Virus record (IMG/VR): IMGVR_UViG_3300024261_002139
Span: 2,921 to 66,920 of that record
Strand: one strand, 5' to 3'
DNA: 64,000 nucleotides
Source of the DNA: a virus
In this document: positions 30,434-64,000 of the stretch, one piece after another
How the letters are laid out: each line of letters begins with the position of its first letter
Numbering within the stretch: the stretch's first letter is position 1
Notes under the pieces: generated by a model
The model's database searches: none
Seen by the model: the letters and a program-made list of their open reading frames with translations, nothing else
What the model was told of the DNA's origin: nothing
Position numbers and translations under genes: made by a program

Positions 30434-32239
30434 ATGGCAATAAAAAAGAATGTACCAATAAAATATACTAGCAGAGATTATGCCAGCATACGAGAAGATT
30501 TGATTCAGCATGCTAAAAGGTATTATCCAGATACCTTTAAGGACTTTAACGAAGCAGGCTTCGGATCTTTGATGCTTGACACCGTTTCTTATGTTGGGGA
30601 TGTGATGTCTTTCTATCTGGATTACCAAGCTAATGAATCTTTTTTGAGCACAGCAACAGAATTTCAAAATGTTATAAAACTTGGACAACAGCTTGGCTAT
30701 CGGTTCAAAGAAAACCCTTCATCTCACGGTGTCTGTACTTTCTTTGTTCTTGTGCCTGCCAATGAAACGGGAACAGGCCCAGATGCCAGATATATTCCAA
30801 TACTCAAGAGAGGCTCTCTGTTATCCTCTACGGATGGAAATAGCTTTTTGTTAGATGACGATGTGTTCTTTTCAGACCCAAGCAATGAAATAGTTGTTGG
30901 TAGGGCAGATGACGACACTGGTGTTCCGACAGCATATGCTATAAGAGCGTATGGGAAGATAGTTTCAGGAAAATTTGAACAAGTTCTTATACCAGTTGGT
31001 GAGTTTAAAAGATTTTTGAATACGAGAGTTAATTTATCCAATGTTACTGAGGTGATATCTGTATTTGACACCGAAGGGCACGAATACTTTGAAGTAAGTT
31101 ATTTGTCACAGGATGTTGTTTACAGGCCGGTTACAAACCGCACATTAACAACGAATGATCAAGCCTCAGCACTTCTTAAGCCATTTACGGTGCCTAGGAG
31201 ATTTGTGGTTGTTCCTGCTGCTGGAGGTGGTATTGCTTTACAATTCGGTACGGGAGATCAAAACTCCACAACGACGACTGCAAATGTTGCGGATCCAAGT
31301 AATGTAACTTTGGAGATTTTCGGTAAAGACTATATTTCAGATACTTCTTTTGATCCAACAAACCTTGTAAAAACGGACAAGATGGGTGTTTCTCCTGTCA
31401 ACACGACACTTAGGGTTGTTTGTAGGACGAACGACAGACTCAATGTTAATGCTGGTGCTGATAGCATTACAAATGTTGATTCCTCATTGTTTGAGTTTGA
31501 CAATGAAGTTGATTTGAGTCCTGTCTTAACAAAATTTGTTAGGAATTCTCTGGAGTCAACAAACGAGGAGCCCGTCATTGGAGATACAACATTCCCATCA
31601 GTTGACGAACTTAAAATAAGGATAAACGATTCATTCGCCACTCAGAACCGGGCGGTGACAAAACAAGATTATCAAAGTTTGATATATTCAATGCCACCAA
31701 AGTTTGGAAGTGTTAAAAGGGTTAATATTATGAGAGATCCTGATTCGCTGAAGAGGAATTTAAATCTTTATGTTGTGGCGGAGAATCTTGACGGAAGTTT
31801 AACGATGCCAAACAGTGTTGTAAAAGAGAATTTAAAAATGTGGCTCAATGAAAATAGGATGATAAATGACACCATTGATATAATAGATGGCAAGATAGTG
31901 AATCTTGCTGTGGAATTTGTTGCTGTTGGTGATTTAGAGACGAACCGTTTTGATCTACTTGACAGTGCATTGATAAATCTGAGAAGAGGGCTATTGAGAG
32001 GGAGAGATCTTGGTGAGCCATTCTTTGTAACGGATATATACGATCTATTGAAAGAAGTTGATGGTATTATAGATGTATCTGATGTAAAGGTAACCACAAA
32101 GAATGGAAGCTTCTATTCGGATGTAAAATTTAATGTAAAAGACAACACATCAGCTGACGGAAGATATATAAAGTGCCCAGGAAATGTTGTTTTTGAACTT
32201 AAATTTCCAAACTCAGACATTAAAGGATCTATTGAATAA
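30434..32239 (+). CDS. Baseplate wedge subunit, T4 gp6/baseplate J-like
   Basis: YTSRDY, DFNEAGFG, FYLDYQANESFL, QFGTG, QNRAVTKQDY. Confidence 0.9.
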   Translation: MAIKKNVPIKYTSRDYASIREDLIQHAKRYYPDTFKDFNEAGFGSLMLDTVSYVGDVMSFYLDYQANESFLSTATEFQNVIKLGQQLGYRFKENPSSHGVCTFFVLVPANETGTGPDARYIPILKRGSLLSSTDGNSFLLDDDVFFSDPSNEIVVGRADDDTGVPTAYAIRAYGKIVSGKFEQVLIPVGEFKRFLNTRVNLSNVTEVISVFDTEGHEYFEVSYLSQDVVYRPVTNRTLTTNDQASALLKPFTVPRRFVVVPAAGGGIALQFGTGDQNSTTTTANVADPSNVTLEIFGKDYISDTSFDPTNLVKTDKMGVSPVNTTLRVVCRTNDRLNVNAGADSITNVDSSLFEFDNEVDLSPVLTKFVRNSLESTNEEPVIGDTTFPSVDELKIRINDSFATQNRAVTKQDYQSLIYSMPPKFGSVKRVNIMRDPDSLKRNLNLYVVAENLDGSLTMPNSVVKENLKMWLNENRMINDTIDIIDGKIVNLAVEFVAVGDLETNRFDLLDSALINLRRGLLRGRDLGEPFFVTDIYDLLKEVDGIIDVSDVKVTTKNGSFYSDVKFNVKDNTSADGRYIKCPGNVVFELKFPNSDIKGSIE

Positions 32240-33681
32240 TGGCTATAAAGAGATATACAGCAGATGCTGATACAACCATAACCAATGCCTACAAACCGAA
32301 TCTAAGGACACGGGCAACAGATGCGAACATGGGGGAATCTGACATCCTAGAGACGTTCTCCATTTATGCTCAAGCATCTTCGTCTTCTTACGAGAAATCA
32401 AGGATATTAACGAAGTTCCCGATCAGTGAAATAATAAGTGACAGAGCAGCTGGATCTATACCTGCTAGTGGTAGTGTCAACTTCTTTATAAAATTATCAA
32501 ACGCAAAACACAGTGAAGCCACCCCAGAAGACTTTACATTAAATGTTCTAGCCGTTTCGAAATCTTGGGATGAAGGTTATGGTTTGGATATGGAGTCTTA
32601 TAAAGATTTGGGCACCGCTAACTGGATATCCGCATCTTGTCTTAATGGTACTGGAAGTGCTTGGGCCACCGAAGGCGGAGATTACCATACTTCCCCTGTA
32701 TATGAATCTTTCTTTGGCTACGGCACAGAAGACCTAGAAGTTGACATAACACAGCTTGTTGAGGAGTGGATTGACGGAACTAAATCAAATTATGGTGTTG
32801 GGGTCCACCTCACTTCGAGCGATGAAGGTGCTGCTAGGTCTTTTTACACAAAGAGGTTTTTTGCTAGAGGGAGCGAGTTCTTCTTCAAACGTCCGTATAT
32901 TGAGGCAAGGTATGACTCTACCATAAAAGACAGAAGAAACAGCTTTATCGTCAGTAGTTCGCTTTTGGAAGCAGAAGACAACGAGAACACTTTGTTCATA
33001 TACAACAGAGTTAGAGGTCATTTAAAAAACATCCCCGGAGTTGGAACGGGTTCTATACATGTTAGTCTTTACTCTGGGTCTTATTTGCCGGTCGGCAATC
33101 CCCTCACTTTATCAAATGGGAATCAGTCGGTTGAGGGAGGGTTTTACGATACTGGGATATACACAGCATCGGTTGGTGTGTTCGTAGAATTCCCTTATGT
33201 CTATGATGTGTGGCATAACGACTTGCCAGACCCTGGTAGGGTAGAATACACAACCGGGAGTAGAATAAGTGTACTGGCTCATGATGCCTCAAACCAGGTA
33301 GACACTGCTGGATATGTATCTTCGATAACAAACCTTCAGAGATCTTACCGGAAAGGTGAAAATGTCAGATTCAGGACTTTCGCAAGATTTAAAGATTGGA
33401 ATCCAACAATTTATACTGTATCAACAACCAACATCGAAAGTGAAATAATAGAAGATGCATATTATAAGATTTATAGAATTATAGATGGGTTTGAGGTTAC
33501 TGGTTATGGCACAGGAAGTTTAAATCACACCAGACTATCATATGATCTAGAAGGGAATTACTTCGACTTTGATATGTCTATTCTCGAACCTGGGTATATG
33601 TATGCTATCAAACTGGCATATTTCCGTTCTGGGAAGTACGAAGAGCAACCAGAAACTTTTAAATTTAAAGTAAAACAATAG
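32239..33681 (+). CDS. Virion structural protein (DNRLRE-like beta domain)
   Basis: ADTTI, SRIL.KF, WDEG.G, W..EGGD, DIT.LVEEW; context in baseplate cluster. Confidence 0.65.
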   Translation: MAIKRYTADADTTITNAYKPNLRTRATDANMGESDILETFSIYAQASSSSYEKSRILTKFPISEIISDRAAGSIPASGSVNFFIKLSNAKHSEATPEDFTLNVLAVSKSWDEGYGLDMESYKDLGTANWISASCLNGTGSAWATEGGDYHTSPVYESFFGYGTEDLEVDITQLVEEWIDGTKSNYGVGVHLTSSDEGAARSFYTKRFFARGSEFFFKRPYIEARYDSTIKDRRNSFIVSSSLLEAEDNENTLFIYNRVRGHLKNIPGVGTGSIHVSLYSGSYLPVGNPLTLSNGNQSVEGGFYDTGIYTASVGVFVEFPYVYDVWHNDLPDPGRVEYTTGSRISVLAHDASNQVDTAGYVSSITNLQRSYRKGENVRFRTFARFKDWNPTIYTVSTTNIESEIIEDAYYKIYRIIDGFEVTGYGTGSLNHTRLSYDLEGNYFDFDMSILEPGYMYAIKLAYFRSGKYEEQPETFKFKVKQ

Positions 33682-33693
33682 GTCTAACGTGGA

Positions 33694-36600
33694 ATGTCGA
33701 TAAAAAAGCTTTTTGGCGAGAAATCAAATAAGATCCTAACTGCGACAAGTTACGACGACTTGTCTAAGGAAGTTGAATCTAACAACTTTGTTAGTTCCAA
33801 GGCAAAAGAAGATAACAGGTTTGTACCAATAGTAGACTTCTCAAGACCCGAGAATTTTGCTAAATTTGGATCAGCAGAGAAGTATTACACAGATGCCATT
33901 AGGGGAATATATAATACATTTCCTTATGACGGCTCTTTATATGAAAAGCAGAATTGGCTCAATAGTGCTTCTTATATCGAGAACTACATTTTTGAAAACG
34001 AATACCCAAGATTCAATGGCTATATAAATATCGGGGATAGTTATGGATCTACTGGTTCAACTTCTGATGGATATGGAGAAGTAGCTGCTGCCAAAGAATA
34101 TATTTTCTTCAAAGGTGGCCCAAACGAGGATCCGGAAAGGACAAAACTAACAAAAATATTTCCAGATTACGATGGTAAGGCAAACGTATATGACCCTGAC
34201 GAAGATAGGGAAGCAAACCTCGTAATCAACGGAGCAGATGGGCTTACTTTAGAATTTTGGCTTAAGCGAAGTTCTTCTCTGGCACAAGAATCAGATAAAC
34301 AAGTAATTTTTGATGTATGGAACAGTGCTTCTTTTGGGAGTTCTGATTATGGTAGATTTAGGGTTGAAGTACATCCTGGAACCTCCGGAGAGGAAAACCA
34401 GATTTATGTAGAATTGATGTCTGGAACTTCCGGCATATTTGAAACATCTTTGGGGCAGAATTTAACAGTAACTGGGTCTTCCTGGCACCACTATGCTGTA
34501 TCAGCAGCTAACTCTGGAAGCGAACTGTCTCTCAGGCTAAGTGTTGATGGGGTAACGAACGACTCGTCAGTAACAGGCTCTTCTATCGGGTTGGTTACTG
34601 GATCTATGTTTGGCTATGTTGGTGCTCTTGGGACATCTGTTTCTGGGACACACGGAGATATAGGATGGGGTAAGTTATCTGGTTCGGTAGATGAAGTTCG
34701 ATATTGGAAAAAGAAAAGAACAGACAAAGACATAGGCAGATATTGGTTTAGGGATGCTGGCGGCGGAACAAACACCGATGATGCTAATACCTCTTTGGGG
34801 GTTTATTACAAGTTTAATGAAGGTGTAATAGATACATCCAACACGAACCAGACAGATGCTGTTGTCCTGGATTATTCTGGTAGGCTATCAAACGGAAATT
34901 GGGTTGGCTATTCTGTCGGTGCAAGAACTACTGGCTCTGCCATGGTGGAGTCGAATGCTGCCACAAGCGAATACAAAGACCCTGTGATTTATTCTTTTAA
35001 TCCAGAAGTAGTGTCATATACGAACAGCAAGACAGTAGCTGGTTCTGTATACGACACGACAAACAATGCTTCTATATATAATTCGTTGCCATCTTGGTTG
35101 ACCTCGGAAGACGAAGAAGTAGGTGGTCGTGTCTTGCTGAATCTTGTTCAGATAATCGCTGGCTATTTTGATAATCTATATCTACAAATAGAAGCATTGC
35201 CGAGAATAAAAGACTTAAATTATTTTGCAGCAGAAAACAAACCATATCCGTTTGTTGGAAGAAGTTTGGACAACATGGGATTTATAGCCCCAGAGCTATT
35301 TTCAGACTCTTCTGTAATAGAAGCCCTCTCAGCAAGAGACGAAACCAGAGACTACGAAGATAGATTAAGTGATATAAAGAACTTAATATATCAGAATATC
35401 TACAACAATTTAACACATCTTTACAAATCAAAGGGAACGGAAAAATCCTTTACAAACCTTATAAGATGTTTTGGTGTTGATGATGAGCTGGTTAGGATCA
35501 ACGCCTATTCGGATGGCATAACATACGAACTTAGGGACAATGTTAGATATACAAGTTATAAAAAGAAATATGCTGATTTCAACAATGTAGATAGGTTTGA
35601 CTCCACTGTCTTTCAGCAAACCGCTAGCAACAATCCAAATAGCTTTTCCTATATATCTGGCTCTATAGACACTAGGCACATGGGAACGACAACGGAAGCT
35701 GAAGTTATCTTTCCCAAAAAGTTTAAGAAAGGAGACCCTTTCTATTTTGCTACGGACTTTGTTAGTGGATCTATTTTTGGCATGCATGAGCCACTCTATA
35801 CGAGTTCAGACGACACAGCCTGGGCAACTACCGACAGGGGACACTTTTCTGTTTATGCTGTAAGAACAGAAGAAGAGTCTGATGATGTATATTTTAAATT
35901 AACATCTTCTTATATGGGTGTTGAGCTGACAAGTAGTGTTTACAAAGAAGTTTACAACAACGAGAAATGGAATTTTGCTGTAAGGGTAAGAGGGGCAGAA
36001 TATCCATCTCCATCTGGTGTTACTGGGGCATTCTCGGCAACTGACGAATACCTAGTAGACTTTGTTGGTGTTAATGCTACTTTGGATGTGATAAGGAATG
36101 AGTTTTCTCTGAGTGCTAGTGTCAGCAAAACATTGGCAGAAAATCACTTATCCGCAAACAAGAGAATATATGTGGGGGCACATAGAGAGAACTTTACTGG
36201 CTCTGTTCAGGATTTAATACCAGCAGAAAACACAGAAGAAAAATCTGATTTCAAGATATCCTCTACTAGATATTGGTTAAATTATCTTTCTGATGACACG
36301 ATAAAGAATCATGCAAAAGATGCATCGAGCTTCGGCTCAGAGAGCCCATATTGGAATGTAGGGTATGATGATGTGCGAGTTCCAGAGATAGCAACTCTAG
36401 CATTGCATTGGACATTTGATAATGTGACATCTTCAGATGCTGGAACGAATCCGATGATATTATTGGATGACGCTCAATTTACAGTAGAAGATGCTTCTTC
36501 CGGAAATATATCACAAGAAAACAGATATGGGTGGGTAGACGGGATAGTCAACAGACAACATCCGGGAGTAGGTGCTCTGTACCCGCCTTTTGATACTCAG

Positions 36601-37524: not shown

Positions 37525-37527
37525 GAT

Positions 37528-38367
37528 GTGTCTGAAGATCAAAGAAACATACAAGAAATACAGATACCGCCAGCAGATATAGAGAATGTTGATGTTGCGA
37601 TATATAATTGGCTCAATGATGAAATGAACCTTTTCTCCACCACGAACAGGAGCTGGAAAAAAGTTCCTACATTGTGGGTGTCGGCAGAAAGAGCATTTCA
37701 GACAAAAAGAGACAAGGGGCTAAGAGATAAAGACGGTGCTCTTATCTTGCCGATTATAACAATAGAAAGAACCGGAATAACAAAAGACCCAGGGAAGAAG
37801 GGCATTTACTGGGGCAACATACCCCCCGCTAATGATGCTCGCGGCGGCTCTATAGAAATAACAAAGATTATAAACCAAGATAAGACATCTAATTTTGCTA
37901 ATGCTGCATCGAAAAGAAAGACTGGACAACTAAACTTTGCGATGAAAGACCCAAACAAAAAAATAGTATATCAGACGGCATCTATCCCAATGCCTGTTTA
38001 TATTGAAATGGATTATGCTATTAATGTGAGGACGGAGTATCAGCAGCAGATGAACGAAATCACACAAGCATTTATGTCCAAACCAGGAGGCATAAACAGA
38101 ATTGAGATAAACAACAACGGCTATAAGTACGAAGGTTTCGTCCAGCCAGATTTCTCGCAAGAGAGCAACGTTGCCGATATGGGCGACGAAGAGCGAAGAT
38201 ACCAGACAATCATAACAGTTAAAGTCTTGGGGTATGTAATTGGAGAAGGTAACAATGAAAACAGGCCCGCAATCATTGTTCGCGAAAATGCCGTTGAAGT
38301 TAAATTTCCGAAAGAAAGTGTGATGGTTGGTGACGAATCCCCTTGGGATAAAATAAAGGGCTGCTGA
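37528..38367 (+). CDS. Tail completion/terminator-like protein
   Basis: KVP.LW...ER, LILP.ITIER, PVYIEMDY.I, QMNEI; lies directly before sheath. Confidence 0.6.
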   Translation: MSEDQRNIQEIQIPPADIENVDVAIYNWLNDEMNLFSTTNRSWKKVPTLWVSAERAFQTKRDKGLRDKDGALILPIITIERTGITKDPGKKGIYWGNIPPANDARGGSIEITKIINQDKTSNFANAASKRKTGQLNFAMKDPNKKIVYQTASIPMPVYIEMDYAINVRTEYQQQMNEITQAFMSKPGGINRIEINNNGYKYEGFVQPDFSQESNVADMGDEERRYQTIITVKVLGYVIGEGNNENRPAIIVRENAVEVKFPKESVMVGDESPWDKIKGC

Positions 38368-38397
38368 TAAAGAAACTTCTTTTGGGCTCTTGGACTA

Positions 38398-38404
38398 CTA
38401 CTTA
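38398..38404 (+). promoter_or_regulatory. Putative late promoter CTACTTA for sheath gene
   Basis: (C)TAnTTA motif in intergenic gap. Confidence 0.6.
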
Positions 38405-38472
38405 TTAGAGAAAATAGTGCGATTTTGAAGTAATTGCATACACCATATCACAAAAAACGAGGGCAAGCAATA

Positions 38473-41358
38473 ATGGCAATAGATCAAACACAGAAATTCA
38501 GATTTGTTTCACCTGGTATCTTCATCGATGAAATTGACAGATCGCAATTACCAAAAATACCCGGAGCAATCGGCCCAGTAGTCATTGGCAGATCCGAAAG
38601 AGGCCCCGGCTTGACACCAGTTAAGCTGAACTCTTACTTGGATTTTGTGAACATATTCGGAAACCCACAAAGGGGAGTTGGTAGCAACGATGTCTGGAGA
38701 AACGGAAACAACACTGCTCCTACATATGGTGCTTATGCTGCACAAGCATATTTGAAGAACTCTGCACCCCTGACTTTCGTTCGTTTGCTCGGCGCTGAAT
38801 CCCCCGATGCCTTTGCGAACGAAGGTGAGGCTGGATGGAAAACTAAAAACTTGGCCTTTGAATCAGACTCGCCTAGCACCAATGGTGGTGCTTATGGTTT
38901 GTTCTTAATCCCCTCTGGTACTTTTGCAGCAGACACCGCAGTTGATTGTCCTCTGGCAGCCGTCTTTTATGTTGGCGAAGGCAAGATGAGATTGGTTGGT
39001 AAAACCCCTGCCGGAAGAATTGTCTCTTCGTCTGCCGGCCAAGATGGTTGCGGAACCTTTGTCCGGACGATAGGTAGTGACTTTGAGCTTGAAGCAACTA
39101 TCTTTAAAGCTGATGGTACTGACATAGAAAAGAGAACGACTTTTAACTTTAATGAAAACTCTCACAAGTATATCCGAAGAGTGTTCAACACGAACCCTAC
39201 TCTTACAAACTCGGACATAACACCATCAGACGGACTCACGAACTATTGGCTTGGGGAAACTTTTGACAATTTCATCAAGAACAAGATCAATGCTAATCTA
39301 GATGCTGGCGAAGCATATGGTTGCTTAGTGCCGCTTCAACAAGGCTCATCAACTGCCTATGCCGATCAGAGACAGCCTGCTCAGGCAGCTGCTTCCGGTT
39401 GGGTAATCTCTCAAGATCTCAATACGGTTACTGCTTCTTTTGATCCTTCTGATATGACGAAGTTGTTCAAGTTCCATGCTCTTGGCGAAGGGGCTGGCGA
39501 ATGGGAACAGAACAACATTAAGGTTTCCATTACAGATATAAAAACCTCAAACAACCCATTGGTTAACGAGTATGGAAGCTTTACTGTCTTAGTCAGGCAA
39601 TTGGAAGATGATAAAGATGCATCTCCCGTCATACTAGAACAATATACTGAATGTGGCCTTAATCCCGCTGCAAATAACTATGTTGCCAATAAGATTGGTG
39701 ACAAGTCTTTGGAATGGAGTGACTCTGAAAGAAGATATACCACTCTTGGAACTTATCCCAACAGCTCAAGATATATTAGGGTAGAGATGAATCCAGATAT
39801 TGAAGTAGGTGGAGTTGATCCTAGGACTCTCCCCTTCGGTGCCTTTGGGCCTCTCAAGTTGAATACTGTACCGGTCGCTTCTGGTTCTAGTGTTGAGAGC
39901 GGAACTAGCTTTCTACAAGGTTCAGGAAGCTCTCCTGACTTTCCGACGACTGCGACAGGAAGTGGGTTTGACATAGATATTAGTTTCTCTGGCTCTTTCC
40001 TTTTTCCGGAAATCCCACTTGTTGCCACGGCATCAGAAACTGGGGTTCCTGATTTTAAGGATGCTTTCTATGGCATTGATGTAACTAAATCTGGTAGCTA
40101 TTCTTTTGATGAGGGGTACAGAGATTATGTCAAAGTAAAACCAAAAACAGTAGATAATCATGCTGACGATGGAAGCACTGTCTATCAATGGGTGTTTACT
40201 CTTGATGATGTCATTGCCACAACTGGTTCTTCAGGCGACATAGACGATGCTTATTATCAAGCAAACTCCAGGCTCTCAGGAACTTCCATCAGTGCTAGTG
40301 GTTCTCTGAACTATGAGAGCACCCTTGATGCCGGCGTCACACAGTTTACTATTCCACTGTTCGGTGGTTCTGACGGGCTAGACCTAACAGAACAAGAGCC
40401 GTTCAGAAACTCTGGAACGAAGAGCAAAACAGAGAAGACAAGCTATGCTTACTACTCAATCAAGAGAGCGATTGATTCTGTCTCGGATCCGGAAGTGATT
40501 GAGATGAATATAGCTACTGTGCCTGGTGTCACTAATACGGGTCTAACAGACCACCTTATGAACACTTGCGAATCCAGGGCAGATGCTCTTGCGATTATTG
40601 ACCCGGAAGGTGGCTACACTCCGGCATCGGAAGCAGCAACTACGGAAGCAGTAAGATCACGAACTGGTGTTGACGAAGTTGTATCAAACATACGGGATAG
40701 AGGATTAAACACTAGCTATGGCTGTGCTTACTATCCTTGGGTACAGATCAGAGATAGAACAACTAATTTTCCTCTCAATGTGCCACCTAGTGTTGTTGCC
40801 CTGGGCACCATGGCTAGTTCACAAGAGAGTACTGCGGTTTGGTTCGCTCCTGCTGGATTTAACCGAGGCGGATTGTCCGAAGGCTCCGCTGGTATCGCGG
40901 TGACAGATGTTAAAGATAGACTTACTGCCAAGAAGCGAGACAAGTTGTATGAACACAATATTAATCCGATTGCCTCATTCCCGTCAGAGGGTATTGTGAT
41001 TTTCGGACAAAAAACTCTTCAGTCTACTCCTTCTGCTCTTGACAGAATTAATGTTAGAAGATTGTTGATTTTCTTGAAGAAGGGTATTTCCAATATCGCT
41101 TCTAGAATTTTGTTTGACCAGAATGTCCAAGTGACTTGGGATAGGTTCACGAGCCAGGTTAATCCATATTTAGATTCTGTTAAATCCGGACTAGGGTTGA
41201 CTGACTATAAAGTCCTTCTTGATGAAACCACAACGACACCTGATTTGATTGATAGAAACATCTTGTATGCCAAGATTTTCCTGAAGCCAGCCCGTGCAAT
41301 TGAGTTCATTGCTTTGGATTTCATAGTCACGAGAACCGGTGCTTCTTTCGACGATTAA
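38473..41358 (+). CDS. Contractile tail sheath protein
   Basis: Start ATG 38473; FVSPGIFIDEID, YYPWV, PPS, WFAPAGFNRG, INPI, GQKTLQ, DRINVRRL. Confidence 0.96.
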   Translation: MAIDQTQKFRFVSPGIFIDEIDRSQLPKIPGAIGPVVIGRSERGPGLTPVKLNSYLDFVNIFGNPQRGVGSNDVWRNGNNTAPTYGAYAAQAYLKNSAPLTFVRLLGAESPDAFANEGEAGWKTKNLAFESDSPSTNGGAYGLFLIPSGTFAADTAVDCPLAAVFYVGEGKMRLVGKTPAGRIVSSSAGQDGCGTFVRTIGSDFELEATIFKADGTDIEKRTTFNFNENSHKYIRRVFNTNPTLTNSDITPSDGLTNYWLGETFDNFIKNKINANLDAGEAYGCLVPLQQGSSTAYADQRQPAQAAASGWVISQDLNTVTASFDPSDMTKLFKFHALGEGAGEWEQNNIKVSITDIKTSNNPLVNEYGSFTVLVRQLEDDKDASPVILEQYTECGLNPAANNYVANKIGDKSLEWSDSERRYTTLGTYPNSSRYIRVEMNPDIEVGGVDPRTLPFGAFGPLKLNTVPVASGSSVESGTSFLQGSGSSPDFPTTATGSGFDIDISFSGSFLFPEIPLVATASETGVPDFKDAFYGIDVTKSGSYSFDEGYRDYVKVKPKTVDNHADDGSTVYQWVFTLDDVIATTGSSGDIDDAYYQANSRLSGTSISASGSLNYESTLDAGVTQFTIPLFGGSDGLDLTEQEPFRNSGTKSKTEKTSYAYYSIKRAIDSVSDPEVIEMNIATVPGVTNTGLTDHLMNTCESRADALAIIDPEGGYTPASEAATTEAVRSRTGVDEVVSNIRDRGLNTSYGCAYYPWVQIRDRTTNFPLNVPPSVVALGTMASSQESTAVWFAPAGFNRGGLSEGSAGIAVTDVKDRLTAKKRDKLYEHNINPIASFPSEGIVIFGQKTLQSTPSALDRINVRRLLIFLKKGISNIASRILFDQNVQVTWDRFTSQVNPYLDSVKSGLGLTDYKVLLDETTTTPDLIDRNILYAKIFLKPARAIEFIALDFIVTRTGASFDD

Positions 41359-41404: not shown

Positions 41405-42079
41405 ATGGCAAATGATGTAACTAACTTTTGGACAACCCCCGGAGAAGATCCGAAAAGAGCATATAGGTTCTTGGTTACTTTCCCTAACATGCCTAATGGA
41501 GCTACTTGGTATGCTAAAAAGTGTTCCAAGCCATCTATGACAATAAGTGAGGCAGCCCATAAATACATTAATCACACTTTTTATTATCCTGGCAAAGTTG
41601 AGTGGGACAAAGTTACCGTCACATTGGTAGACCCTGTTTCGCCAGATGCTGCTAATAATCTGGCAGCGTTGTTAGAATCGGCTGGGTATGTTATCCCAGG
41701 AGATTATGCAGATACCACTACTATGTCAAAAGCAGCTGCCACTAGGATGTTAGGGGAGATTAAAATTCGTCAACTTGGATCCAGATCACCAAACGGTGGC
41801 AATATCCAGCCAGCTTTGGAAACCTGGACATTGAAAAATGCTTGGATCACTTCCGTTAAGTTTGGCGAGTTGGACTATGATTCAGATGATCTGACGAATA
41901 TTGACCTTGAAATTCGATATGACTGGGCAGAATTAGAAACGTCAAACAAAGACATCACTTCCATCACAACAGCAGCAGACACGAATGCAGAACATGGTAC
42001 ACAGGCACCGAGCCCCAGTAATGCCAGATTTAAGCCCACCAGCCGCGACGCGGTAACCGATCCGGCTCTGGAATCATAA
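41405..42079 (+). CDS. Tail tube protein (gp19-like)
   Basis: PKRAYRF, YPGKVEW, TLVDP, ETWTLKNAW, FGELDY, IRYDWA. Confidence 0.92.
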   Translation: MANDVTNFWTTPGEDPKRAYRFLVTFPNMPNGATWYAKKCSKPSMTISEAAHKYINHTFYYPGKVEWDKVTVTLVDPVSPDAANNLAALLESAGYVIPGDYADTTTMSKAAATRMLGEIKIRQLGSRSPNGGNIQPALETWTLKNAWITSVKFGELDYDSDDLTNIDLEIRYDWAELETSNKDITSITTAADTNAEHGTQAPSPSNARFKPTSRDAVTDPALES

Positions 42080-42109: not shown

Positions 42110-42988
42110 ATGACCGTAAGAAACAATGAAGAGCGATTGGGGGTTAAAGACACTGGTACTAACCCGCCAATCACTCAACCTGCTTCAAGTGAAGCATCTG
42201 TTCCGAACACTCCATTACAATTTTCAACACCAACAGAATTTGTTGATTTGCCATCAAAGGGTAAATATTATCCAAGTGGTCACCCACTTCACGGCAAAGA
42301 CAGTGTTGAGATTCGTTTTATGACAGCGAAGGAAGAAGACATTCTAACATCAAAAACTCTTTTAAAGAAGGGCATAGCGATTGACAGAATGCTTCAGAAT
42401 TTGGTTGTTGATAAATCTGTCCTTATAGACGATCTTCTCGTTGGAGACAAAAATGCTCTAATAGTTGCTGCTCGTGTATCTGGGTATGGAGCAGAATATG
42501 AAACCAGTGTAACTTGTCCTGCTTGCGGGACATCCTGTAAACACTCTTTTGATCTAAGCGACGGCTCCGTCCAAGGGGGAGAAGAAAATTTAGAAGATGT
42601 CGGCATGGGAGTGACGAAAACACCAGACAACACTTTCATAACAAGGTTGATAAAAACAGATGTGGAAGTGGAATTGAGGTTGCTTATTGGGAAAGATGAA
42701 AAAGCCCTAATGAAGACAGCCGAGAAGAGAAAGAAACACAAGCTACCAGAAAACAACTCAACAGAACAAACCAAGATGATATTGGTGTCTGTTGGGGGGC
42801 ATACAGATGCAGCGACCATCAACTCTCTTGTTGATAATCTTCCGGCTCTTGATTCTAGACAGCTGAGAGAAGCATATCAAAAGATAACACCAAACATTGA
42901 TTTAACACAGGAGTTCGTCTGTGGCACTTGCGATTACGAACAGGACATGGAGGTTCCTTTTACAACGGACTTTTTTTGGCCTAAGTGA
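42110..42988 (+). CDS. Baseplate hub/tail assembly chaperone (T4 gp26-like)
   Basis: LPSKG.YY, MTAKEEDIL, two CxxC, ends DFFWPK. Confidence 0.85.
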   Translation: MTVRNNEERLGVKDTGTNPPITQPASSEASVPNTPLQFSTPTEFVDLPSKGKYYPSGHPLHGKDSVEIRFMTAKEEDILTSKTLLKKGIAIDRMLQNLVVDKSVLIDDLLVGDKNALIVAARVSGYGAEYETSVTCPACGTSCKHSFDLSDGSVQGGEENLEDVGMGVTKTPDNTFITRLIKTDVEVELRLLIGKDEKALMKTAEKRKKHKLPENNSTEQTKMILVSVGGHTDAATINSLVDNLPALDSRQLREAYQKITPNIDLTQEFVCGTCDYEQDMEVPFTTDFFWPK

Positions 42989-57172: not shown

Positions 57173-57189
57173 AGGGGTATAGGGAAAAA

Positions 57190-60066
57190 ATGGCAAAACT
57201 TAGCAAAGACACAATATTAAGAGCGACACAGATAGAGATAGCAGATATCACTTCTCGTGTTTCACAAATCACATCTGCGACTTCTAGTGCGGAAGGTGAT
57301 CAGCTGAAGAATAATGATTTTTTTTCACGAGATGGGATTATTCCGCTTACCAAGAAAGGAAAGATATTTGAAGGTGGGAAGCTGGTGGACACTTTTGCAT
57401 CCCCAAGGGCCAACCCCACCGCGATAGATGAATTGATAACCAACATACAGAACGTTCCATCAAACTATGGCGAAGTTGAGGAAGTTAATAAGTCGAACTA
57501 CCCAGAAGAAGTTGGAGCACTGACAGTTTCAGCAGGAAAGAGGCTTGTTTCAATTGACAGAAATTTTTATGGCCCCAATGAACAGGTATATTTAGAGAAC
57601 TCTGATCCGAGAGAGGGGAAGAACTTTGTTGGAGATCCTCTTCGTGGAAGAACAGGGGCATATTGGACAAAGGACTCAGAAAATAGAAATTTTACTTTCT
57701 TGAACAAGCACAATATCCAAGGTAATGTTCCAGTTAAAATAAATTATCTTGAAGTATACGATGACGAGCCAAGGTACAATCACGGTCTTCAGAAAAGTGA
57801 TTTTGGAAGAACTTGGCAATGGCTTTTGATGAAACCAAACAAAACACAGTTTAAAACCCCAAAGGGGAATTATTCTAAGAAGCTTTGGTCTTCTTATGTG
57901 CAGGGTGGGACATATAGCGGAAAGAAGCTAGGATCTGCAGTTGTTCCAGCGAACAGGGCAGGAACATCTATTGGAGTTTCAGACAAGATAACGAGCACTA
58001 GACCAGGCTCACGACCAGCTGACAGAGGTGATTTCCGCCCATCATCACTAGGCGCCTTGCAAAATTCAGTTGCGAATGTCCCGACACGAACAGAGATATT
58101 CTTCGATCACTCTTTTGATATGGTTGCTCCCTTTGTAGAGAAAGAAGTAGAAAAGATCAATCCAATATTCGGTTCAAAAACAGCAGACATAAAAGCAGTA
58201 TACAATTTCTATATAGATGAATACGAAAGTACCATTTCCAGCAATATAGTATCAGAAAAGACACTTCCCAACATGTATGTTATGATATCTGAAAATGAGG
58301 CATCAAGCCCACCACCGATATTTAAGAAACACATAACTTTGAATAATAACCTGAAGACAGATCAGAAAGCATTTAGTCGTGTTGGTGAACAAAAATACGA
58401 TCTAAGGGATAGTCCAATCGGCGAGTACTTCGATCTTTACGGAACTCAATACGGAGAAATAATACGAAAAGATTCTTTAGAGGATTTAAAAACGACATTT
58501 ACGAATTTGATGTTTTCTGTGAATGACTTGGGTATGCTTAGGGAGCAAGCAGAAAAGAAAGAAATGTTCCCAATGTTCTTTGATATAAAATTCTCAACAG
58601 ATAAAAATGCATTCTTTGCCGAAATTTTGAAAGAAGCAAAGTTGATGGACTATATGACAAACTTTGTTATGAAGATGACGAAAAACAAACAATTTGAAAC
58701 GAAAGAATATCAAACAGGAAAAGAAATAGTAATTCAAAGAGGTGAAGAAGTTCAGAGAGAAATGAAGTTTACCACATCCAGAAGAAGAATGTGGGATATG
58801 AACCAGTGGTTAAGCCAGCCATTAGCGAACATACAAATTAGTGGTGGCACATTCTTAGGTGAGATGGACAACAGCATAATGGCAGAGAATGGAGAGCAAT
58901 ATAAACTTTTCAACAGTTTGATGCGGATTGTCATGACAGACAAAACCAACAAGCTGATTAGGACAAACTTTCGCACCTATGAGGATATGCTGAATGGTAA
59001 GCTAGCATATAACGAAACAGTATTATATAGAGTTGCTAAGTTTGAGGGCAGAACTACTTCGGGAGACCCCATACAGAATTTTTATTTCCCCAACTCCCTA
59101 GAAGAAGATATGGTGAGATATGTTGATACCCAAGTTAAATACGACAAGGAATACACATATGTTGTATATGCATATCAAATTGTTGTTGGGAACAAGTATT
59201 GGTATGACCAAACAAACGCCACCAACAATGAAGAGACCGCTCGGTGTAAACTCTTCCAGGAACCAAGTGTGACTTTGGTAGAAGTTCCTTATTATAGTTT
59301 TGCTGGCAGGATTGTGGACCGCCCACCAGTTATTCCAGATGTGACAATCACGCCGTATAAATCAATTGATAACAAGGTATTAATATCTTTTAATACTGGT
59401 GTTGGGGATTATAAAGATAACCCAATTGTTATTGAACCAGAAGACAGGACGGAAATAAACAAAATAAGAATGTTACAGAAGGTTGGCCCCGATGATCCAA
59501 TTGAATTTGGTAGCGATGATGGGGACTCAACATATGAGGTCTACAGGCTAGACAAAAAACCAGAGAGCTATTCAGACTTTTCTAAAAACCTTAGAGCTGT
59601 TGTTAGCACTGATGTTGATCCGCTCACAGCACAGAAGGCAACATCAGCTGCCTTTGTGGATGTGGTGAAGCCAAACAAAAAACATTATTATACTTTTAGA
59701 TCGATTGATGTACATGGCAACAAGTCTAATCCGACAGCACTGTACGAAGTCGAGATGGTTAATGATGCTGGCACTATATATCCAGAGTTTAATGTCGTGG
59801 ACTTTGACAAGCCAGAAACAATAGGGAGCAGAACAGCCAAGAAATACATCCAAATCATACCGACTATCTTTCAGGGCCTTATAAACGAAAAAGCTTCTGG
59901 GTTTGACAAGGTTGAATCAGCAAACGATTTACCAACAGGTGTCCAGCTTGGCATTGCAGAGGAATCGGTTTGGAATAAGAAATTCAAATTAGTGATGACC
60001 TCTCGGTCTTCTGGCAAAAAAATGCACATCAATTTTGATTTCAAACACAAACACGTGACTACATAA
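57190..60066 (+). CDS. Putative baseplate protein with FN3-like C-terminal domains
   Basis: YVDTQVKYDKEYTY, YEVYR, YYTFRSIDVHGNKSNP. Confidence 0.6.
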   Translation: MAKLSKDTILRATQIEIADITSRVSQITSATSSAEGDQLKNNDFFSRDGIIPLTKKGKIFEGGKLVDTFASPRANPTAIDELITNIQNVPSNYGEVEEVNKSNYPEEVGALTVSAGKRLVSIDRNFYGPNEQVYLENSDPREGKNFVGDPLRGRTGAYWTKDSENRNFTFLNKHNIQGNVPVKINYLEVYDDEPRYNHGLQKSDFGRTWQWLLMKPNKTQFKTPKGNYSKKLWSSYVQGGTYSGKKLGSAVVPANRAGTSIGVSDKITSTRPGSRPADRGDFRPSSLGALQNSVANVPTRTEIFFDHSFDMVAPFVEKEVEKINPIFGSKTADIKAVYNFYIDEYESTISSNIVSEKTLPNMYVMISENEASSPPPIFKKHITLNNNLKTDQKAFSRVGEQKYDLRDSPIGEYFDLYGTQYGEIIRKDSLEDLKTTFTNLMFSVNDLGMLREQAEKKEMFPMFFDIKFSTDKNAFFAEILKEAKLMDYMTNFVMKMTKNKQFETKEYQTGKEIVIQRGEEVQREMKFTTSRRRMWDMNQWLSQPLANIQISGGTFLGEMDNSIMAENGEQYKLFNSLMRIVMTDKTNKLIRTNFRTYEDMLNGKLAYNETVLYRVAKFEGRTTSGDPIQNFYFPNSLEEDMVRYVDTQVKYDKEYTYVVYAYQIVVGNKYWYDQTNATNNEETARCKLFQEPSVTLVEVPYYSFAGRIVDRPPVIPDVTITPYKSIDNKVLISFNTGVGDYKDNPIVIEPEDRTEINKIRMLQKVGPDDPIEFGSDDGDSTYEVYRLDKKPESYSDFSKNLRAVVSTDVDPLTAQKATSAAFVDVVKPNKKHYYTFRSIDVHGNKSNPTALYEVEMVNDAGTIYPEFNVVDFDKPETIGSRTAKKYIQIIPTIFQGLINEKASGFDKVESANDLPTGVQLGIAEESVWNKKFKLVMTSRSSGKKMHINFDFKHKHVTT

Positions 60067-60093
60067 ACAAAGAAGTATTTTGTTTCTAAAGAA

Positions 60094-60100
60094 CTATTTA
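60094..60100 (+). promoter_or_regulatory. Putative late promoter CTATTTA
   Basis: Upstream of AAGGAG RBS of ORF 60123. Confidence 0.6.
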
Positions 60101-60122
60101 TTTAGCAAAGGAGTTAAAAACT

Positions 60123-61037
60123 ATGGGTTTTCTTGACAATTCTGGAGATATCATTCTAGACGCCGTATTAACGGACACGGGAAGAATGAGATTAGCAAAG
60201 GGCGATGGTTCTTTCAAAATAGCGAAGTTCGCTCTTGGCGATGACGAAGTTGATTATTCTTTATATGATAAGAACAATGCTAGCGGAAGTGCCTACTTCG
60301 ATATAAGCATACTCACAACCCCTGTTCTAGAGGCATTCACTGATAATGCTGCTTCTATGAAATCAAAACTTATTTCAATTCCAGCCACGAACCTGCTATA
60401 CCTTCCAGTCATGAAGCTGAATGAACTTTATCCAAAAACATCGATGCATTCTAGCGGAGCTTTCATGGTCGCGGTAGACAAAGAGACTGAAGAAGCGGTG
60501 ACTATCAATGCAGATGGTGCTGCTGTTGACGGCATTATCCCTGGTTTTACTTTAGTTGGCGGAACTTCGATCAGGGCAGACCAGGGCCTGGACACTGCGG
60601 AGATATCTCCTGCCTCTACTATCGACTCGCAGTTGTTAGAGACCCAATATATCGTTGAGATAGACAATAGGTTTGGTAAGATAGTCAACTACAAGAACGG
60701 CAACACTGCTAAGGTTTCTTATATAGATGACGACAGCGTTGCTAGCTATTATTTCACTTCGGGAGTGGATCAGGACTTTGTTAGAGAGAACACTGATAAA
60801 GAAAAATCTACCGGAACAAAACAAGTTATAGCTGGCCCAAGAGGGACTATTTTTCAATTTGGCATAGGAGCTTCGTTGGAAACAAACACTAGTGATTTCT
60901 TGTTTGCGCAGCTTGGTGGCACCGCCACCTTGGAAGGAAGCAGTGTATATTTCATTGATTCAATTGTGAGGATAAACGGAGCAACAACCGGATATAAACT
61001 AGATATACCAGTCAGGTTTGTTAAGCTGGTGAGCTAG
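60123..61037 (+). CDS. Baseplate/virion structural protein
   Basis: MGFLDN..IILDAVLTDTGR..LA.G.F.IAKFALGDDEVDY. Confidence 0.7.
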   Translation: MGFLDNSGDIILDAVLTDTGRMRLAKGDGSFKIAKFALGDDEVDYSLYDKNNASGSAYFDISILTTPVLEAFTDNAASMKSKLISIPATNLLYLPVMKLNELYPKTSMHSSGAFMVAVDKETEEAVTINADGAAVDGIIPGFTLVGGTSIRADQGLDTAEISPASTIDSQLLETQYIVEIDNRFGKIVNYKNGNTAKVSYIDDDSVASYYFTSGVDQDFVRENTDKEKSTGTKQVIAGPRGTIFQFGIGASLETNTSDFLFAQLGGTATLEGSSVYFIDSIVRINGATTGYKLDIPVRFVKLVS

Positions 61038-61054
61038 GAAGGACATAATAAGAT

Positions 61055-62065
61055 ATGGCAACAGTATTTAAAACTTTTCTGAATGATGATGTAACATCAA
61101 CTAGAACATTGCTCCATGAAGCTATCCCTTTGACTGGGACGATTGTTTCGGGAACATATACAGATCTAAACATTAAGAATTATACCCACGGGATGTTTCA
61201 GTCGGTATACGATTATCCTTATCTAAGTTCATCTGCAAATCACATTTTTGATTTGACTTGCGGCTATTCTTCTATTTCTGCTTTGTCTGGTGCTGCCAGC
61301 GAACAGAATGCTAAGAAGATTCAAATATATAATCAAATGGCTCAAATACTTGTTGGACACAATGAGAGTGGAAACATTTTGAAATTTGATGCTGATGGAA
61401 ATATTATCGCGGGCGGAGCAAAGATGAACGAAGTTTATTTTGTAAACTTTGCAAGGCTTCTTAACAAAGACGAAATCAAGAAAGGGTCTTTTTCTATGGT
61501 TATCGGGGATACAGTTGCTTACGGTACTCCATTTGGGAGCACACAAACGATTGACGATTCAGGAGCACAAAACGATTATAGAGTGAATTCTCCAGCTGGA
61601 GAATATGCTATTTTGTCTTCATCTGTCACAGGAGACCAGGCCGGGTTGCTGTTCTACCAAGCTGGAGTGGCAGTCTTGACAGCATCTGTGTTTTCGTCGG
61701 CAGAAATGAATTCAAGTGCAGAATTAGTTGATGCTGTTTTGTCAGGTAGCACGATAGAACAAAATTCTGATGCCACAAGACACAGAATAAGTAATATTCA
61801 GTTTAACAATACCACAGAGCTTAATTCTACTATTTATTTCTGTAGGGTCAACCACAATGAATACAATTATAGTTCTAACCCAACATATCTAAGCTCCAGT
61901 AAGATGGTTGTGAAAGACACCACGGTAGATTCACCAGTATCTTATATTACGACTGTTGGGCTTTACTCTGCCGACAATGAACTTCTAGCAGTTGCGAAAC
62001 TTAGTGAACCGCTCAAAAAAGATCCAACGAACGAGCTGATTCTGAGAGTTCGTTTGGATTATTAA
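61055..62065 (+). CDS. Baseplate/fibre-attachment structural protein
   Basis: YNYSSNPT and C-terminal YITTVGLY....LLAVAKLSEPLKK...VRLDY. Confidence 0.7.
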   Translation: MATVFKTFLNDDVTSTRTLLHEAIPLTGTIVSGTYTDLNIKNYTHGMFQSVYDYPYLSSSANHIFDLTCGYSSISALSGAASEQNAKKIQIYNQMAQILVGHNESGNILKFDADGNIIAGGAKMNEVYFVNFARLLNKDEIKKGSFSMVIGDTVAYGTPFGSTQTIDDSGAQNDYRVNSPAGEYAILSSSVTGDQAGLLFYQAGVAVLTASVFSSAEMNSSAELVDAVLSGSTIEQNSDATRHRISNIQFNNTTELNSTIYFCRVNHNEYNYSSNPTYLSSSKMVVKDTTVDSPVSYITTVGLYSADNELLAVAKLSEPLKKDPTNELILRVRLDY

Positions 62066-62203
62066 CAGAGGTAGGTATGTTGTGCCTATCATTTCTAAGC
62101 CGAATTTTGTTTCAGACGAGATAGAAGATAAACAAACATCTAATTATAAAAGTAGCCGTTTACATATAAACGAACGGATACTTTTATTTTGGAGTAGTAT
62201 TGC

Positions 62204-63292
62204 ATGAGTCATCCAGATAGCGGTTCTATAGACCTATATGAGATGAACGTTGGTGTCGGTGAAGGACGGCCAGCGAGTAGTCTAATTTATCCTTTCACTG
62301 TGAAAGGCGGCTCATTAGACTCCTTCAAGACAATATCTACCACAGAATTCAGTAGTGACTATTCTTATGGTGCTGTCATAACAGGCACATATCCACTCAC
62401 TTCTGATATTTCTGTTAACAGATTCAATACTCCATATGCCGCCTTTGAGAGCGAGTTCATCCAGCAGAGAAGACGGCTATTGGCCTTAAAAAATACTTTT
62501 AATTATTATTCTGTCTTGAACCCTCATTATCAATTCAATTCTGATCTTGGAAACAAGGAAACACAATATTGTAGCTTGATAAGCATTCCATCTATCTTTT
62601 ACGGTGCATCCTTAGAGAAGGGGACAGTCAATCTTAAATTTTATGTGACAGGCACGTTGGTCGGAGAACTGAAGGACGAAAAGAAAAATGGCAGCCTTAT
62701 CCAAGTTGGCCCAGCCGGAAGCAATGGATCGGGAAGTGTCGCAGGGGTTGTTCTTTATAAGGAAGGATTTATTTATCTGACAGGCAGTTGGGATTTAGAT
62801 TCTAGCCACGAAGAGAAATACGAACCACACCCATCAGCACCGACTTTAACTGGGGCTTTGTTTAACCCTGCTTGGATATATTTTGGAACAACTGGCTCTA
62901 CTGCCGACCCAGGAACAAATGTTCCTTCTTCTAGCTTTGATTTGAAGTTTGATGGTGTAAACGAAATACCAGTTTTGACAATGATGGCACATGCTGTCAG
63001 AGGACAACTAAACAGTTCAAACAACCCAACTTACATACAAGCAGGCCAAGACGATAAACTAGTAGCAGCAACTGGTTCTGTTTATTATAAAGAGAGAAGC
63101 GATATCGATATAAAAAATACCATTAAATCACCATACACTGAAGACCCAGCACAATTTGAAAAACAAACATATATCTCTAAAGTGGCTATTTATGATGAAG
63201 ACAAAAATCTTATTGGCATTGCGAAATTGGCAACACCAGTTAGAAAAAGAGAAACAGACTCATATACATTTAAGATGAAGGTGGATTTTTAA
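62204..63292 (+). CDS. Baseplate/fibre-attachment protein, paralog of 61055
   Basis: LNSSNNPT and YISKVAIYD...LIGIAKLATPVRK...KVDF; CTAATTA upstream at 62140. Confidence 0.7.
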   Translation: MSHPDSGSIDLYEMNVGVGEGRPASSLIYPFTVKGGSLDSFKTISTTEFSSDYSYGAVITGTYPLTSDISVNRFNTPYAAFESEFIQQRRRLLALKNTFNYYSVLNPHYQFNSDLGNKETQYCSLISIPSIFYGASLEKGTVNLKFYVTGTLVGELKDEKKNGSLIQVGPAGSNGSGSVAGVVLYKEGFIYLTGSWDLDSSHEEKYEPHPSAPTLTGALFNPAWIYFGTTGSTADPGTNVPSSSFDLKFDGVNEIPVLTMMAHAVRGQLNSSNNPTYIQAGQDDKLVAATGSVYYKERSDIDIKNTIKSPYTEDPAQFEKQTYISKVAIYDEDKNLIGIAKLATPVRKRETDSYTFKMKVDF

Positions 63293-63294
63293 GA

Positions 63295-63513
63295 ATGCCG
63301 TATTACAAATTCAAATCTAGTGACGTTTTTAACAACACGATTAAGACTTATCCAAAAGCTGAATTTTTTATTTATAACGGGAAGGTGTACTATAACAAAA
63401 CCTATATTCCATTTTCAGGTTCCGCAGATATTGCTCCGGTTACCCATATCTTAACAGAAGCCAAAGAAAAGATTACAACAGAAGCAGGCGAACATTTGAT
63501 AACAGAGTCCTAA
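63295..63513 (+). CDS. Small virion adaptor-like protein
   Basis: MPYYKF..N-terminus; C-terminal ILTE..E.ITTE.GE.LITE repeats. Confidence 0.6.
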   Translation: MPYYKFKSSDVFNNTIKTYPKAEFFIYNGKVYYNKTYIPFSGSADIAPVTHILTEAKEKITTEAGEHLITES

Positions 63514-63543
63514 TTAGTATTGGAAATAAAGAGGAAAATTTAA

Positions 63544-64000
63544 ATGGCAAATGTAAAAATAACAGCTTTACCAGCAGCAACATCAATTACTAGTGATGAT
63601 TTGGTCCCCATTGTCGATGGTGTAGCAACAACCCAAAAAGCAACTTTCCAACAAGTTTTAAACTATGTTACTGGTTCTACTTTTAACGACCTTACAGTTA
63701 CATCACTGACTGCTTCTGTTAGCGGCACATTTGTTGGCGACGGCACTGGTATCACAGGTGTAATAGCAGAGTGGGATGGTTCACATGTTGGCGATGCCAG
63801 CATAACAGGATCTCTGTGGGTGAGTGGATCTCTCATAGCAGATGTAGCACTAAGCGGAGCAGTCGGTTCAGAGATAACATCTACTTCATATACTCTATCG
63901 GCAGATGACAGAGGAAAAACATTATTGTTTAGTAGTTCCGCCACACAAGGCATTACTTGCTCTTCTGGACTTAGCGTCGGATACAATAGCACTTTCATTC
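63544..64000 (+). CDS. Tail fibre-like protein (partial, runs off window)
   Basis: ATG 63544 after AGAGG; MANVKITALP..DDLVPIVD start, GTFVGDGTGITG fibre motif; CTAATTA at 63510. Confidence 0.75.
   Translation, partial: MANVKITALPAATSITSDDLVPIVDGVATTQKATFQQVLNYVTGSTFNDLTVTSLTASVSGTFVGDGTGITGVIAEWDGSHVGDASITGSLWVSGSLIADVALSGAVGSEITSTSYTLSADDRGKTLLFSSSATQGITCSSGLSVGYNSTFI

Follow-up and report, generated by a model that had tools for sequence, protein, structure and literature searches.

A Ser/Thr-Gly-Ser tripeptide enriched in tail proteins of an aquatic myovirus lineage, a candidate acceptor tag for a linked pair of phage glycosyltransferases

To investigate why one short tripeptide recurs in the tail proteins of an uncultured phage, we analyzed a 64,000-nucleotide stretch of DNA, referred to here as the window, which comprises bases 2921-66920 of the 66,920-base virus contig IMGVR_UViG_3300024261_002139. 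The window appears to be the tail and glycan part of an uncultured aquatic myovirus of roughly 190 kb. Open reading frames (ORFs) of at least 100 residues were treated as genes, and the + strand carries all of them but one. Several encode structural proteins in which Ser or Thr followed by Gly-Ser ([ST]GS) is repeated, and two adjoining genes, ORF6850 and ORF8122, encode a pair of glycosyltransferases (GTs). The question raised by this locus is whether the tripeptide is read by the GT pair or serves the proteins that carry it in another way. A first, sequence-only reading had proposed that [ST][GA]S is a sequon for O-glycosylation of exposed virion proteins. Our best single explanation, held tentatively and at somewhat less than even confidence, is that [ST]GS serves the phage GT pair, which is probably heterodimeric, as an acceptor tag.

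The [ST][GA]S counts were tested against 2000 composition shuffles per ORF for 45 ORFs. All of the counts that had been made by eye were reproduced and the enrichment persisted, also when residues were shuffled inside blocks of 10, 15 or 30. The excess lies with [ST]GS, of which the 16 structural ORFs contain 50 copies, as compared with about 12.5 expected (about fourfold). A tripeptide scan of the same ORFs (10,863 residues) with no preset motif found TGS 25 times vs 5.8 expected (z 8.0) and SGS 25 times vs 6.7 (z 7.2). The only words that scored higher belonged to YWTD repeats or were IQR, leaving TGS and SGS as the top non-repeat tripeptides. As TAS (9 copies) and SAS (5) do not stand out in the window, the Gly form of the proposed sequon stands and the Ala form does not. 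In seven rich proteins, [ST]GS occurs 48 times, relative to 8-21 times for four permutations of the same residues and 10 times for SGT, and the remaining structural proteins (7552 residues) hold only 4 copies. Codons at the sites match background usage and 9-mers recur at most three times, such that the signal acts at the protein level. The excess in the window is thus real and a property of the proteins. A DNA-level motif was ruled out by the diversity of codons, and local richness in Ser, Gly and Thr by the block shuffles and permutations. The rich proteins are mutually dissimilar by BLAST, which joins only the C-terminal parts of ORF61055 and ORF62204, and a common homologous domain was therefore also rejected as the explanation.

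The motif is not spread evenly over the tail (Table 1). ORF32239 contains 8 [ST][GA]S vs 1.33 expected (p<=0.0005) and ORF33694 contains 16 vs 2.86. In the sheath, ORF38434, there are 10 vs 2.54, all in the non-conserved middle insertion at residues 333-622 and none in the conserved core at either terminus, the C-terminal part of which (residues 687-965) is matched by Pfam and PHROG; the placement in the middle and the absence from the C-terminal core had been noticed by eye. The propeller protein ORF43634 has 15 vs 6.02 (p 0.002), and ORF51666 has 2 vs 0.25 (p 0.03). ORF61055, ORF62204 and the fibre at 63544 had been described together as dense in the motif. This holds for ORF62204 (5 vs 1.02, p 0.002) and marginally for the partial ORF63544 (4 vs 1.37, p 0.04; for [ST]GS, 3 vs about 0.9 by local shuffles, p 0.05), and fails for ORF61055 (2 vs 1.10, p 0.30). 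The N-terminus of ORF63544 is found again in motif-rich fibres of the relatives G001 and Flavobacterium phage immuto. No [ST][GA]S occurs in the tube (ORF41405) or in PhoH, and the 2212-residue ORF23347 shows no excess (4 vs 3.09), which agrees with the earlier remark on all three. Separately, ORF43634 carries low-density lipoprotein (LDL) receptor class B repeats (YWTD; Ldl_recept_b, Pfam E 6e-58, five stretches) and also has Vgb-lyase/SGL-like propeller matches; among tripeptides of the structural module, its words MYW, YWT and KMY show the strongest over-representation.

The same behaviour is seen in homologues. ORF32239 has at least 184 relatives in IMG/VR, 80 of which were analyzed. In 73 of the 80, [ST]GS reaches z>=4, with 5-10 copies each as compared with about one expected, and the family total is 519 vs 73.5 in 76 homologues. 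For the ORF33694 family, it is 849 vs 184 in 54 homologues. The ORF33694 homologues are much longer than the window protein (mean 2542 residues; 3718 in G002, at 68362-79515), this type of tail protein gaining and losing large modules. The gp6-like wedge family (30434-32239, + strand) is instead depleted, with 8 [ST]GS vs 32 expected across 73 homologues, in contrast to the families encoded just downstream of it.

To consider whether the excess accompanies the GT pair, [ST]GS was counted across whole genomes (Table 2). All nine genomes that bear the pair show the excess, with 2-14 ORFs each at p<0.001, and none of the seven pair-less genomes does. In immuto, the motif-rich proteins include the sheath and the products of the ORFs at 97658-100816 and 135075-136193. 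Expressed as fold over the mean of four permutations, pair-bearing proteomes range from 1.8 to 2.9 and pair-less ones from 0.5 to 1.3. The [ST]GS excess is a lineage-wide trait. The seven genomes lacking an excess rule it out as a general trait of beta-rich phage tail proteins. Among them, Streptomyces phage Yaboi was considered as an independent lineage; it has an ORF8122-like GT that matches over half the length at 24% identity, there is no excess, and the case is uninformative. As for further pair-less relatives, a search of IMG/VR with the GT of the pair-less phage LR756508 as query gave none. A profile search led by that sequence gave 80 loci of distant relatives, all with the pair wherever downstream sequence exists. 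A wedge-profile search returned mostly close relatives and short distant contigs.

Table 2. Genome-wide [ST]GS counts in pair-bearing and pair-less phages, over ORFs of at least 100 residues (at least 150 for the window).
Genome	GT pair	Observed vs expected	ORFs at p<0.001
Window	yes	55 vs 17.0	5
G001	yes	81 vs 42.4	3
G002	yes	112 vs 42.0	5
immuto	yes	117 vs 46.4	5
Mel-JY01	yes	105 vs 37.3	7
RM378	yes	51 vs 18.3	2
G007	yes	133 vs 67.1	5
G008	yes	276 vs 90.0	14
G009	yes	174 vs 59.2	10
T4	no	19 vs 27.2	0
S-MbCM100	no	78 vs 55.2	0
LR756508	no	106 vs 76.8	0
phi-pp2	no	43 vs 35.8	0
Campylobacter phage F207	no	29 vs 17.9	0
Lu11	no	51 vs 43.3	0
Yaboi	no	24 vs 18.9	0

The informative pair-less genome is LR756508, a distant relative from an uncultured phage of 484 kb. 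It has the wedge, two sheaths, tube, hub, ORF33694-like and ORF61055-like proteins, nuclease and first GT, and no ORF8122 homologue was found in it by BLAST or profile. Its first GT stops about 25 residues early, without the conserved C-terminal tail, and this missing tail is the predicted interface with ORF8122. The homologous tail proteins are kept, without an [ST]GS excess. When the sheath tree is rooted on T4 and S-MbCM100, LR756508 is sister to Microcystis phage Mel-JY01 (97/97), inside the pair-bearing group. Its sheath insertion is too diverged from that of the window for a site-by-site alignment, and the C-terminal module of ORF61055 that is common to LR756508 and the window contains no motif. 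We also note that the two LR756508 sheaths are adjacent paralogues (202463-208423) of 824 residues each, both lacking any [ST]GS.

The GT pair itself is conserved and tightly linked. Homologues of ORF6850 (59-63% identity) are present in all five complete relatives, and at least 589 related stretches are found in IMG/VR. In the 80 loci mentioned above, the second GT gene directly follows the first in all 72 that have downstream sequence, the other eight ending at a contig edge. The nuclease gene and both GT genes are syntenic across immuto, Mel-JY01 and Rhodothermus phage RM378. ORF8122 itself scores 19 bits, below the Pfam cut-off, which is passed by its homologues in G001 (35.5) and G002 (27.2). 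Its AlphaFold2 (AF2) model is of high confidence (predicted local distance difference test, pLDDT, 91.7) and its top PDB fold matches are all GT-B enzymes, the best being the chlorovirus NY-2A GT B736L (3oy2_A, E 1.8e-17; next 4e-12). The sequence GEG[FY]G.P..E, which we take to be a Glu-x7-Glu-like motif, is kept in five of six aligned ORF8122 homologues and lost in RM378. A model of the complex of ORF6850 and ORF8122 scored 0.85, with the best of three controls at 0.00; the mark applied is reached by 58 of 80 solved complexes and by 2 of 110 mismatched pairs, a calibration that is only rough as it relies on our own alignments. Contacts agree between runs to 93% or more, the partner pLDDT is 89 or higher, and the predicted interface places the ORF6850 C-terminal tail (417-423) against an ORF8122 strand (247-255). 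The two proteins thus probably form a heterodimer, as judged from the model. Apart from this, in Mel-JY01 the ORF6850 homologue is split in two ORFs of 190 and 302 residues (83441-84929), annotated as two glycosyltransferases; the split may be genuine or may stem from a frameshift or from an error in sequencing.

Conservation of the pair across phages that infect three phyla suggests that its substrate is intrinsic to the phage. DNA was considered as such a substrate. A ThyA-family hydroxymethylase was found in one of the five pair-bearing genomes searched, and the lack of a match in the other four argues, if weakly, against glycosylation of hydroxymethyl-pyrimidines in DNA by the pair. We infer that the pair acts on proteins, with [ST]GS as the acceptor and a glycan coat as the product. 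In the mechanism that we propose, the two GT-B enzymes would assemble as a heterodimer in the infected cell and O-glycosylate Ser or Thr of the short tag. Selection would have multiplied the tag on a subset of outer tail proteins, namely fibres, baseplate-peripheral beta-sandwich proteins and the outward sheath insertion, and the adjoining variable sugar-building genes would diversify the glycan. The reading can be stated for the whole group, a very large clade of T4-like myoviruses from aquatic habitats that is represented by at least 589 IMG/VR stretches with the GT and whose hosts span at least three phyla of bacteria. A heterodimeric GT dedicated to this task would write a glycan coat, via a minimal O-linked Ser/Thr-Gly-Ser sequon, on fibres, baseplate periphery and sheath surface. 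We place this wider statement slightly below the acceptor reading on which it builds.

The acceptor reading has some drawbacks that need to be considered, several of which favour a purely structural role for the motif. In this alternative, [ST]GS is a Ser/Thr-capped tight turn or beta-arc, or the rung of a hexad fibre, inherited in fibre and beta-sandwich modules; the GT pair would modify something unrelated (e.g. DNA, a small molecule or the host envelope), its co-occurrence with the motif being due to shared ancestry only. Within the ORF32239 family (46-58% identity), many sites are conserved in position: of 81 rows, 69 have SGS at residue 78, 64 have SGS at 280, 52 have TGS at 340 and 76 have TGS at 426 (T invariant), and other sites are gained and lost. 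At a given site, S or T is fixed (T in 81 of 81, S in 78 of 81) and G is nearly invariant. ORF32239 is all-beta in its AF2 model (pLDDT 82.2), which comprises a CBM-like domain and Ig/FN3-like sandwiches, and five of its six [ST]GS sites fall in coil that immediately adjoins a strand, as judged from secondary structure only. Fixed positions, a near-invariant Gly and strand edges are the pattern expected of a structural turn, and the O-glycosylation reading, which shuffling and co-occurrence with the pair support, is not favoured by these sites over a turn. In 56 rich proteins with 643 sites altogether, hydrophobic residues flank the motif at -1, +3 and +5, and spacings between sites peak at 6 (50) and 12 (29), most sites being isolated. 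A minority of sites form hexad arrays (e.g. TGSLWVSGS, in ORF63544), which are typical of a fibrous repeat. A PDB sequence search with the ORF32239 family gave nothing useful.

Other points bear on the assignment to the pair. All of the pair-bearing phages belong to one broad lineage, such that nine of nine vs none of seven may reflect one gain and one loss, and four of five trees (wedge, hub, tube and GT) do not place LR756508 firmly. Avoidance of the motif is not seen outside of the rich ORFs, where counts are 330 vs 266.7 in pair-bearing and 315 vs 263.6 in pair-less genomes. The pair adjoins a PD-(D/E)XK nuclease gene, which is a DNA-metabolism setting, and GT-B fold matches fail to separate enzymes with protein acceptors from those with small-molecule acceptors. 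The pass of the complex model may draw partly on likeness to the solved GtfA/GtfB complex (5e9t). Painting of the exposed virion proteins, as had been claimed, holds for several outer tail proteins and not for the two large tail proteins ORF52733 (1479 residues; 0 [ST][GA]S vs 3.15) and ORF57190 (958 residues; 0 vs 1.04). Co-occurrence of the enrichment with GTs is seen for the core pair and not for the whole operon at positions 6.9-17.4 kb. Indeed, the variable sugar operon was rejected as a correlate, as the DegT aminotransferase is present in three of the five complete relatives (G002, G004 and G005; not G001 or G003) and is unrelated to the motif counts in their ORF32239 homologues (3, 6, 9, 2 and 8 for G001-G005). 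The glycan coat is a prediction from sequence and structural models.

Nonetheless, a structural role does not readily account for other parts of the data. The rich proteins are unrelated to one another by BLAST and include the sheath insertion, in which motif positions vary between lineages. The beta-rich tail proteins of T4, S-MbCM100, phi-pp2, Lu11, F207 and Yaboi, and the homologous tail proteins kept by LR756508, show no excess. In such turns, Asp and Asn are the usual alternatives to Ser and Thr. In the ORF32239 family, Asp and Asn do not substitute (NGS 5 and DGS 12 vs TGS 229), and the motif fills 24 site clusters as compared with 8-15 for permuted words; SAS and TAS are also frequent there. 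Finally, the whole window holds a single pair of [ST]GS sites six residues apart, the one in ORF63544. We consider a purely structural motif to be a serious competitor, only a little less likely than the acceptor reading, although on balance doubtful.

The excess could also be a tag for some other trans-acting factor, through phosphorylation, sulfation fed by the adenosine 5'-phosphosulfate (APS) kinase of the window, or an assembly factor. An excess that is specific to the lineage and to the order of the residues, across unrelated proteins, suggests a trans-acting reader of some kind, and the APS kinase has a 59% homologue in G001. General profile matches revealed no candidate kinase or sulfotransferase in the window, and the GT pair fits 16 of 16 genomes, the pair being the only element tested for co-occurrence; we regard another reader as improbable. 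The APS kinase (17326-18084, + strand) is fused to a DUF2061 membrane domain beside the sugar genes, and its occurrence in G001, which lacks the DegT operon, hints at sulfated products. A chance, compositional or DNA-level artefact, a concern since the motif was picked by eye after reading the sequence, is rejected with near certainty given the unbiased scan, the local shuffles and permutations, the diverse codons, and replication in the ORF32239 homologues and in eight further genomes.

Returning to the acceptor reading, several known systems offer comparison. The O-GlcNAc transferase GtfA/GtfB of Gram-positive serine-rich repeat adhesins and SdgB (PDB 4pqg, 5e9t and 7vfl) are among the ORF8122 fold matches, at ranks 8, 25 and 32. 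These are cytoplasmic GT-B enzymes (GT4) that act on Ser in short, repeated S-x-S-like contexts. GtfA/GtfB is likewise a heterodimer of two GT-B proteins, binding within the phage pair being supported by the model only. The differences are considerable: identity is 11-13%, sucrose-phosphate synthase and BshA match at least as well, and the phage targets are folded tail proteins rather than long Ser-rich tracts. GtfB is non-catalytic and serves as a substrate binder, whereas both phage subunits keep conserved acidic motif residues (Glu-x7-Glu-like). The chlorovirus protein B736L is a virus GT4 enzyme which, besides being the best fold match of ORF8122, matches ORF6850 in sequence (E 1.3e-4); it comes, however, from a eukaryotic virus and shares 14% identity. 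Chloroviruses and giant viruses make their own glycans for virion proteins, those of chlorovirus capsids being N-linked at unusual sites.

Among phages, O-glycosylation of mycobacteriophage virions by phage-encoded GTs was reportedly described by Freeman et al. in 2023, as cited in PMC12619734, according to which the sites are the C-termini of capsid and tail-tube subunits. The likeness lies in phage-encoded GTs beside sugar-building genes and in a glycan coat on virion proteins, which is proposed here. Our candidate sites are, in contrast, internal and tripeptide-based, the window tube has no motif, and the capsid gene lies outside the window; the targets would be fibres, the sheath insertion and baseplate-peripheral proteins of aquatic myoviruses. 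For other phages, marine phage proteomics (PMC12014285) reports only phosphorylation and acetylation. HMW1C-type soluble N-glycosyltransferases, with a partner glucosyltransferase (PMC3012730, PMC10507012), resemble the proposed system in that a cytoplasmic enzyme decorates many three-residue sequons on a beta-rich surface protein, but are N-linked at Asn-X-Ser/Thr, of GT41 fold and directed to bacterial adhesins. A limited literature search found no published description of a Ser/Thr-Gly-Ser tag on phage proteins.

The coordinates of the main features are summarized in Table 1. The left part of the window encodes PhoH with a fused N-terminal PIN domain (3327-4664, + strand), a dCMP deaminase, the PD-(D/E)XK nuclease at 6034 and, by profile matches, a HAD hydrolase and a nucleotidyltransferase. 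The five GT-like ORFs of the window are 6850, 8122, 9359, 11658 and 13584. The right part is the tail module, which runs from a VanY-domain protein and ORF23347 to the gp6-like baseplate wedge at 30434, and then through ORF32239, ORF33694, a gp15-like protein, the sheath, the tube at 41405 and the hub at 42110 to the propeller protein, more large proteins and, at the window edge, a truncated fibre. The nearest cultured relatives, all distant, are Mel-JY01, immuto and RM378.

Table 1. Features of the window that bear on the [ST]GS excess and the GT pair, with [ST]GS counts given as observed vs expected.
Feature	Coordinates	Strand	Basis or description	[ST]GS
ORF6850, GT4 glycosyltransferase, first of pair	6850..8121	+	Pfam Glycos_transf_1 PF00534, 47.9 bits (cut-off 26.4)	
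ORF8122, GT-B fold glycosyltransferase, second of pair	8122..9381	+	weak Pfam GT1 match; AF2 model	
Variable glycan-building block	9359..18084	+	Pfam and NCBIfam matches	
GT; methyltransferase; weak GT; hexapeptide acyltransferase; FkbM methyltransferase	9359; 11158; 11658; 12506; 12955	+	profile matches	
Weak GT; 4,6-dehydratase/epimerase; DegT (DegT/LegC-like) aminotransferase; NDP-sugar dehydrogenase; APS kinase	13584; 14588; 15550; 16545; 17326	+	profile matches	
ORF32239	32239..33681	+	480-residue all-beta tail/baseplate-peripheral protein, motif-rich	6 vs 0.77
ORF33694	33694..37524	+	1276-residue tail protein, motif-rich	12 vs 1.59
ORF38434, tail sheath	38434..41358	+	phrog_23; Pfam sheath domains at residues 687-965	7 vs 1.33
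ORF43634	43634..51658	+	2674-residue tail protein, YWTD beta-propellers, motif-rich	13 vs 3.26
ORF51666	51666..52733	+	355 residues, weakly enriched	2 vs 0.14
ORF62204	62204..63292	+	362-residue fibre-module protein, motif-rich; C-terminal paralogue of ORF61055	5 vs 0.60
ORF63544	63544..63999	+	fibre N-terminal part, cut by window end; marginal enrichment	

Three further genes of the window were noted. The sole sizeable minus-strand gene (2548-3342) codes for a serine peptidase of the trypsin-like type (Trypsin_2, E 3.7e-15) whose N-terminus is hydrophobic; it contains three [ST]GS, which include the catalytic GSSGSP box and are unrelated to the tail motif. The ORF at 4829-5710 (+) has a sub-threshold match to the ATLF metalloprotease-like Pfam family (19 bits, cut-off 27.4) that is probably not meaningful. 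The VanY-domain protein at 20718-22352 (+; 544 residues), with a VanY D-Ala-D-Ala carboxypeptidase domain and a tape-measure PHROG match, is likely a tail-associated cell-wall hydrolase.

Glycosylation of phage virions has so far been chemically documented for a few mycobacteriophages, without a sequon. If the acceptor reading is true, the pair would represent the first case of protein glycosylation directed by a sequon in a bacterial virus, with a variable sugar operon that diversifies the coat, and sequence would allow glycan coats to be predicted in a group of phages that is widespread in marine and fresh waters. This would have implications for host recognition and the stability of particles, as well as for escape from defences or grazers, and would provide a compact cytoplasmic O-glycosylation tool. 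As cultured members exist, namely Flavobacterium phage immuto (vB_FspM_immuto), Microcystis phage Mel-JY01 and Rhodothermus phage RM378, the idea is testable now. If the motif is structural instead, it still defines a lineage-specific building block of phage fibres.

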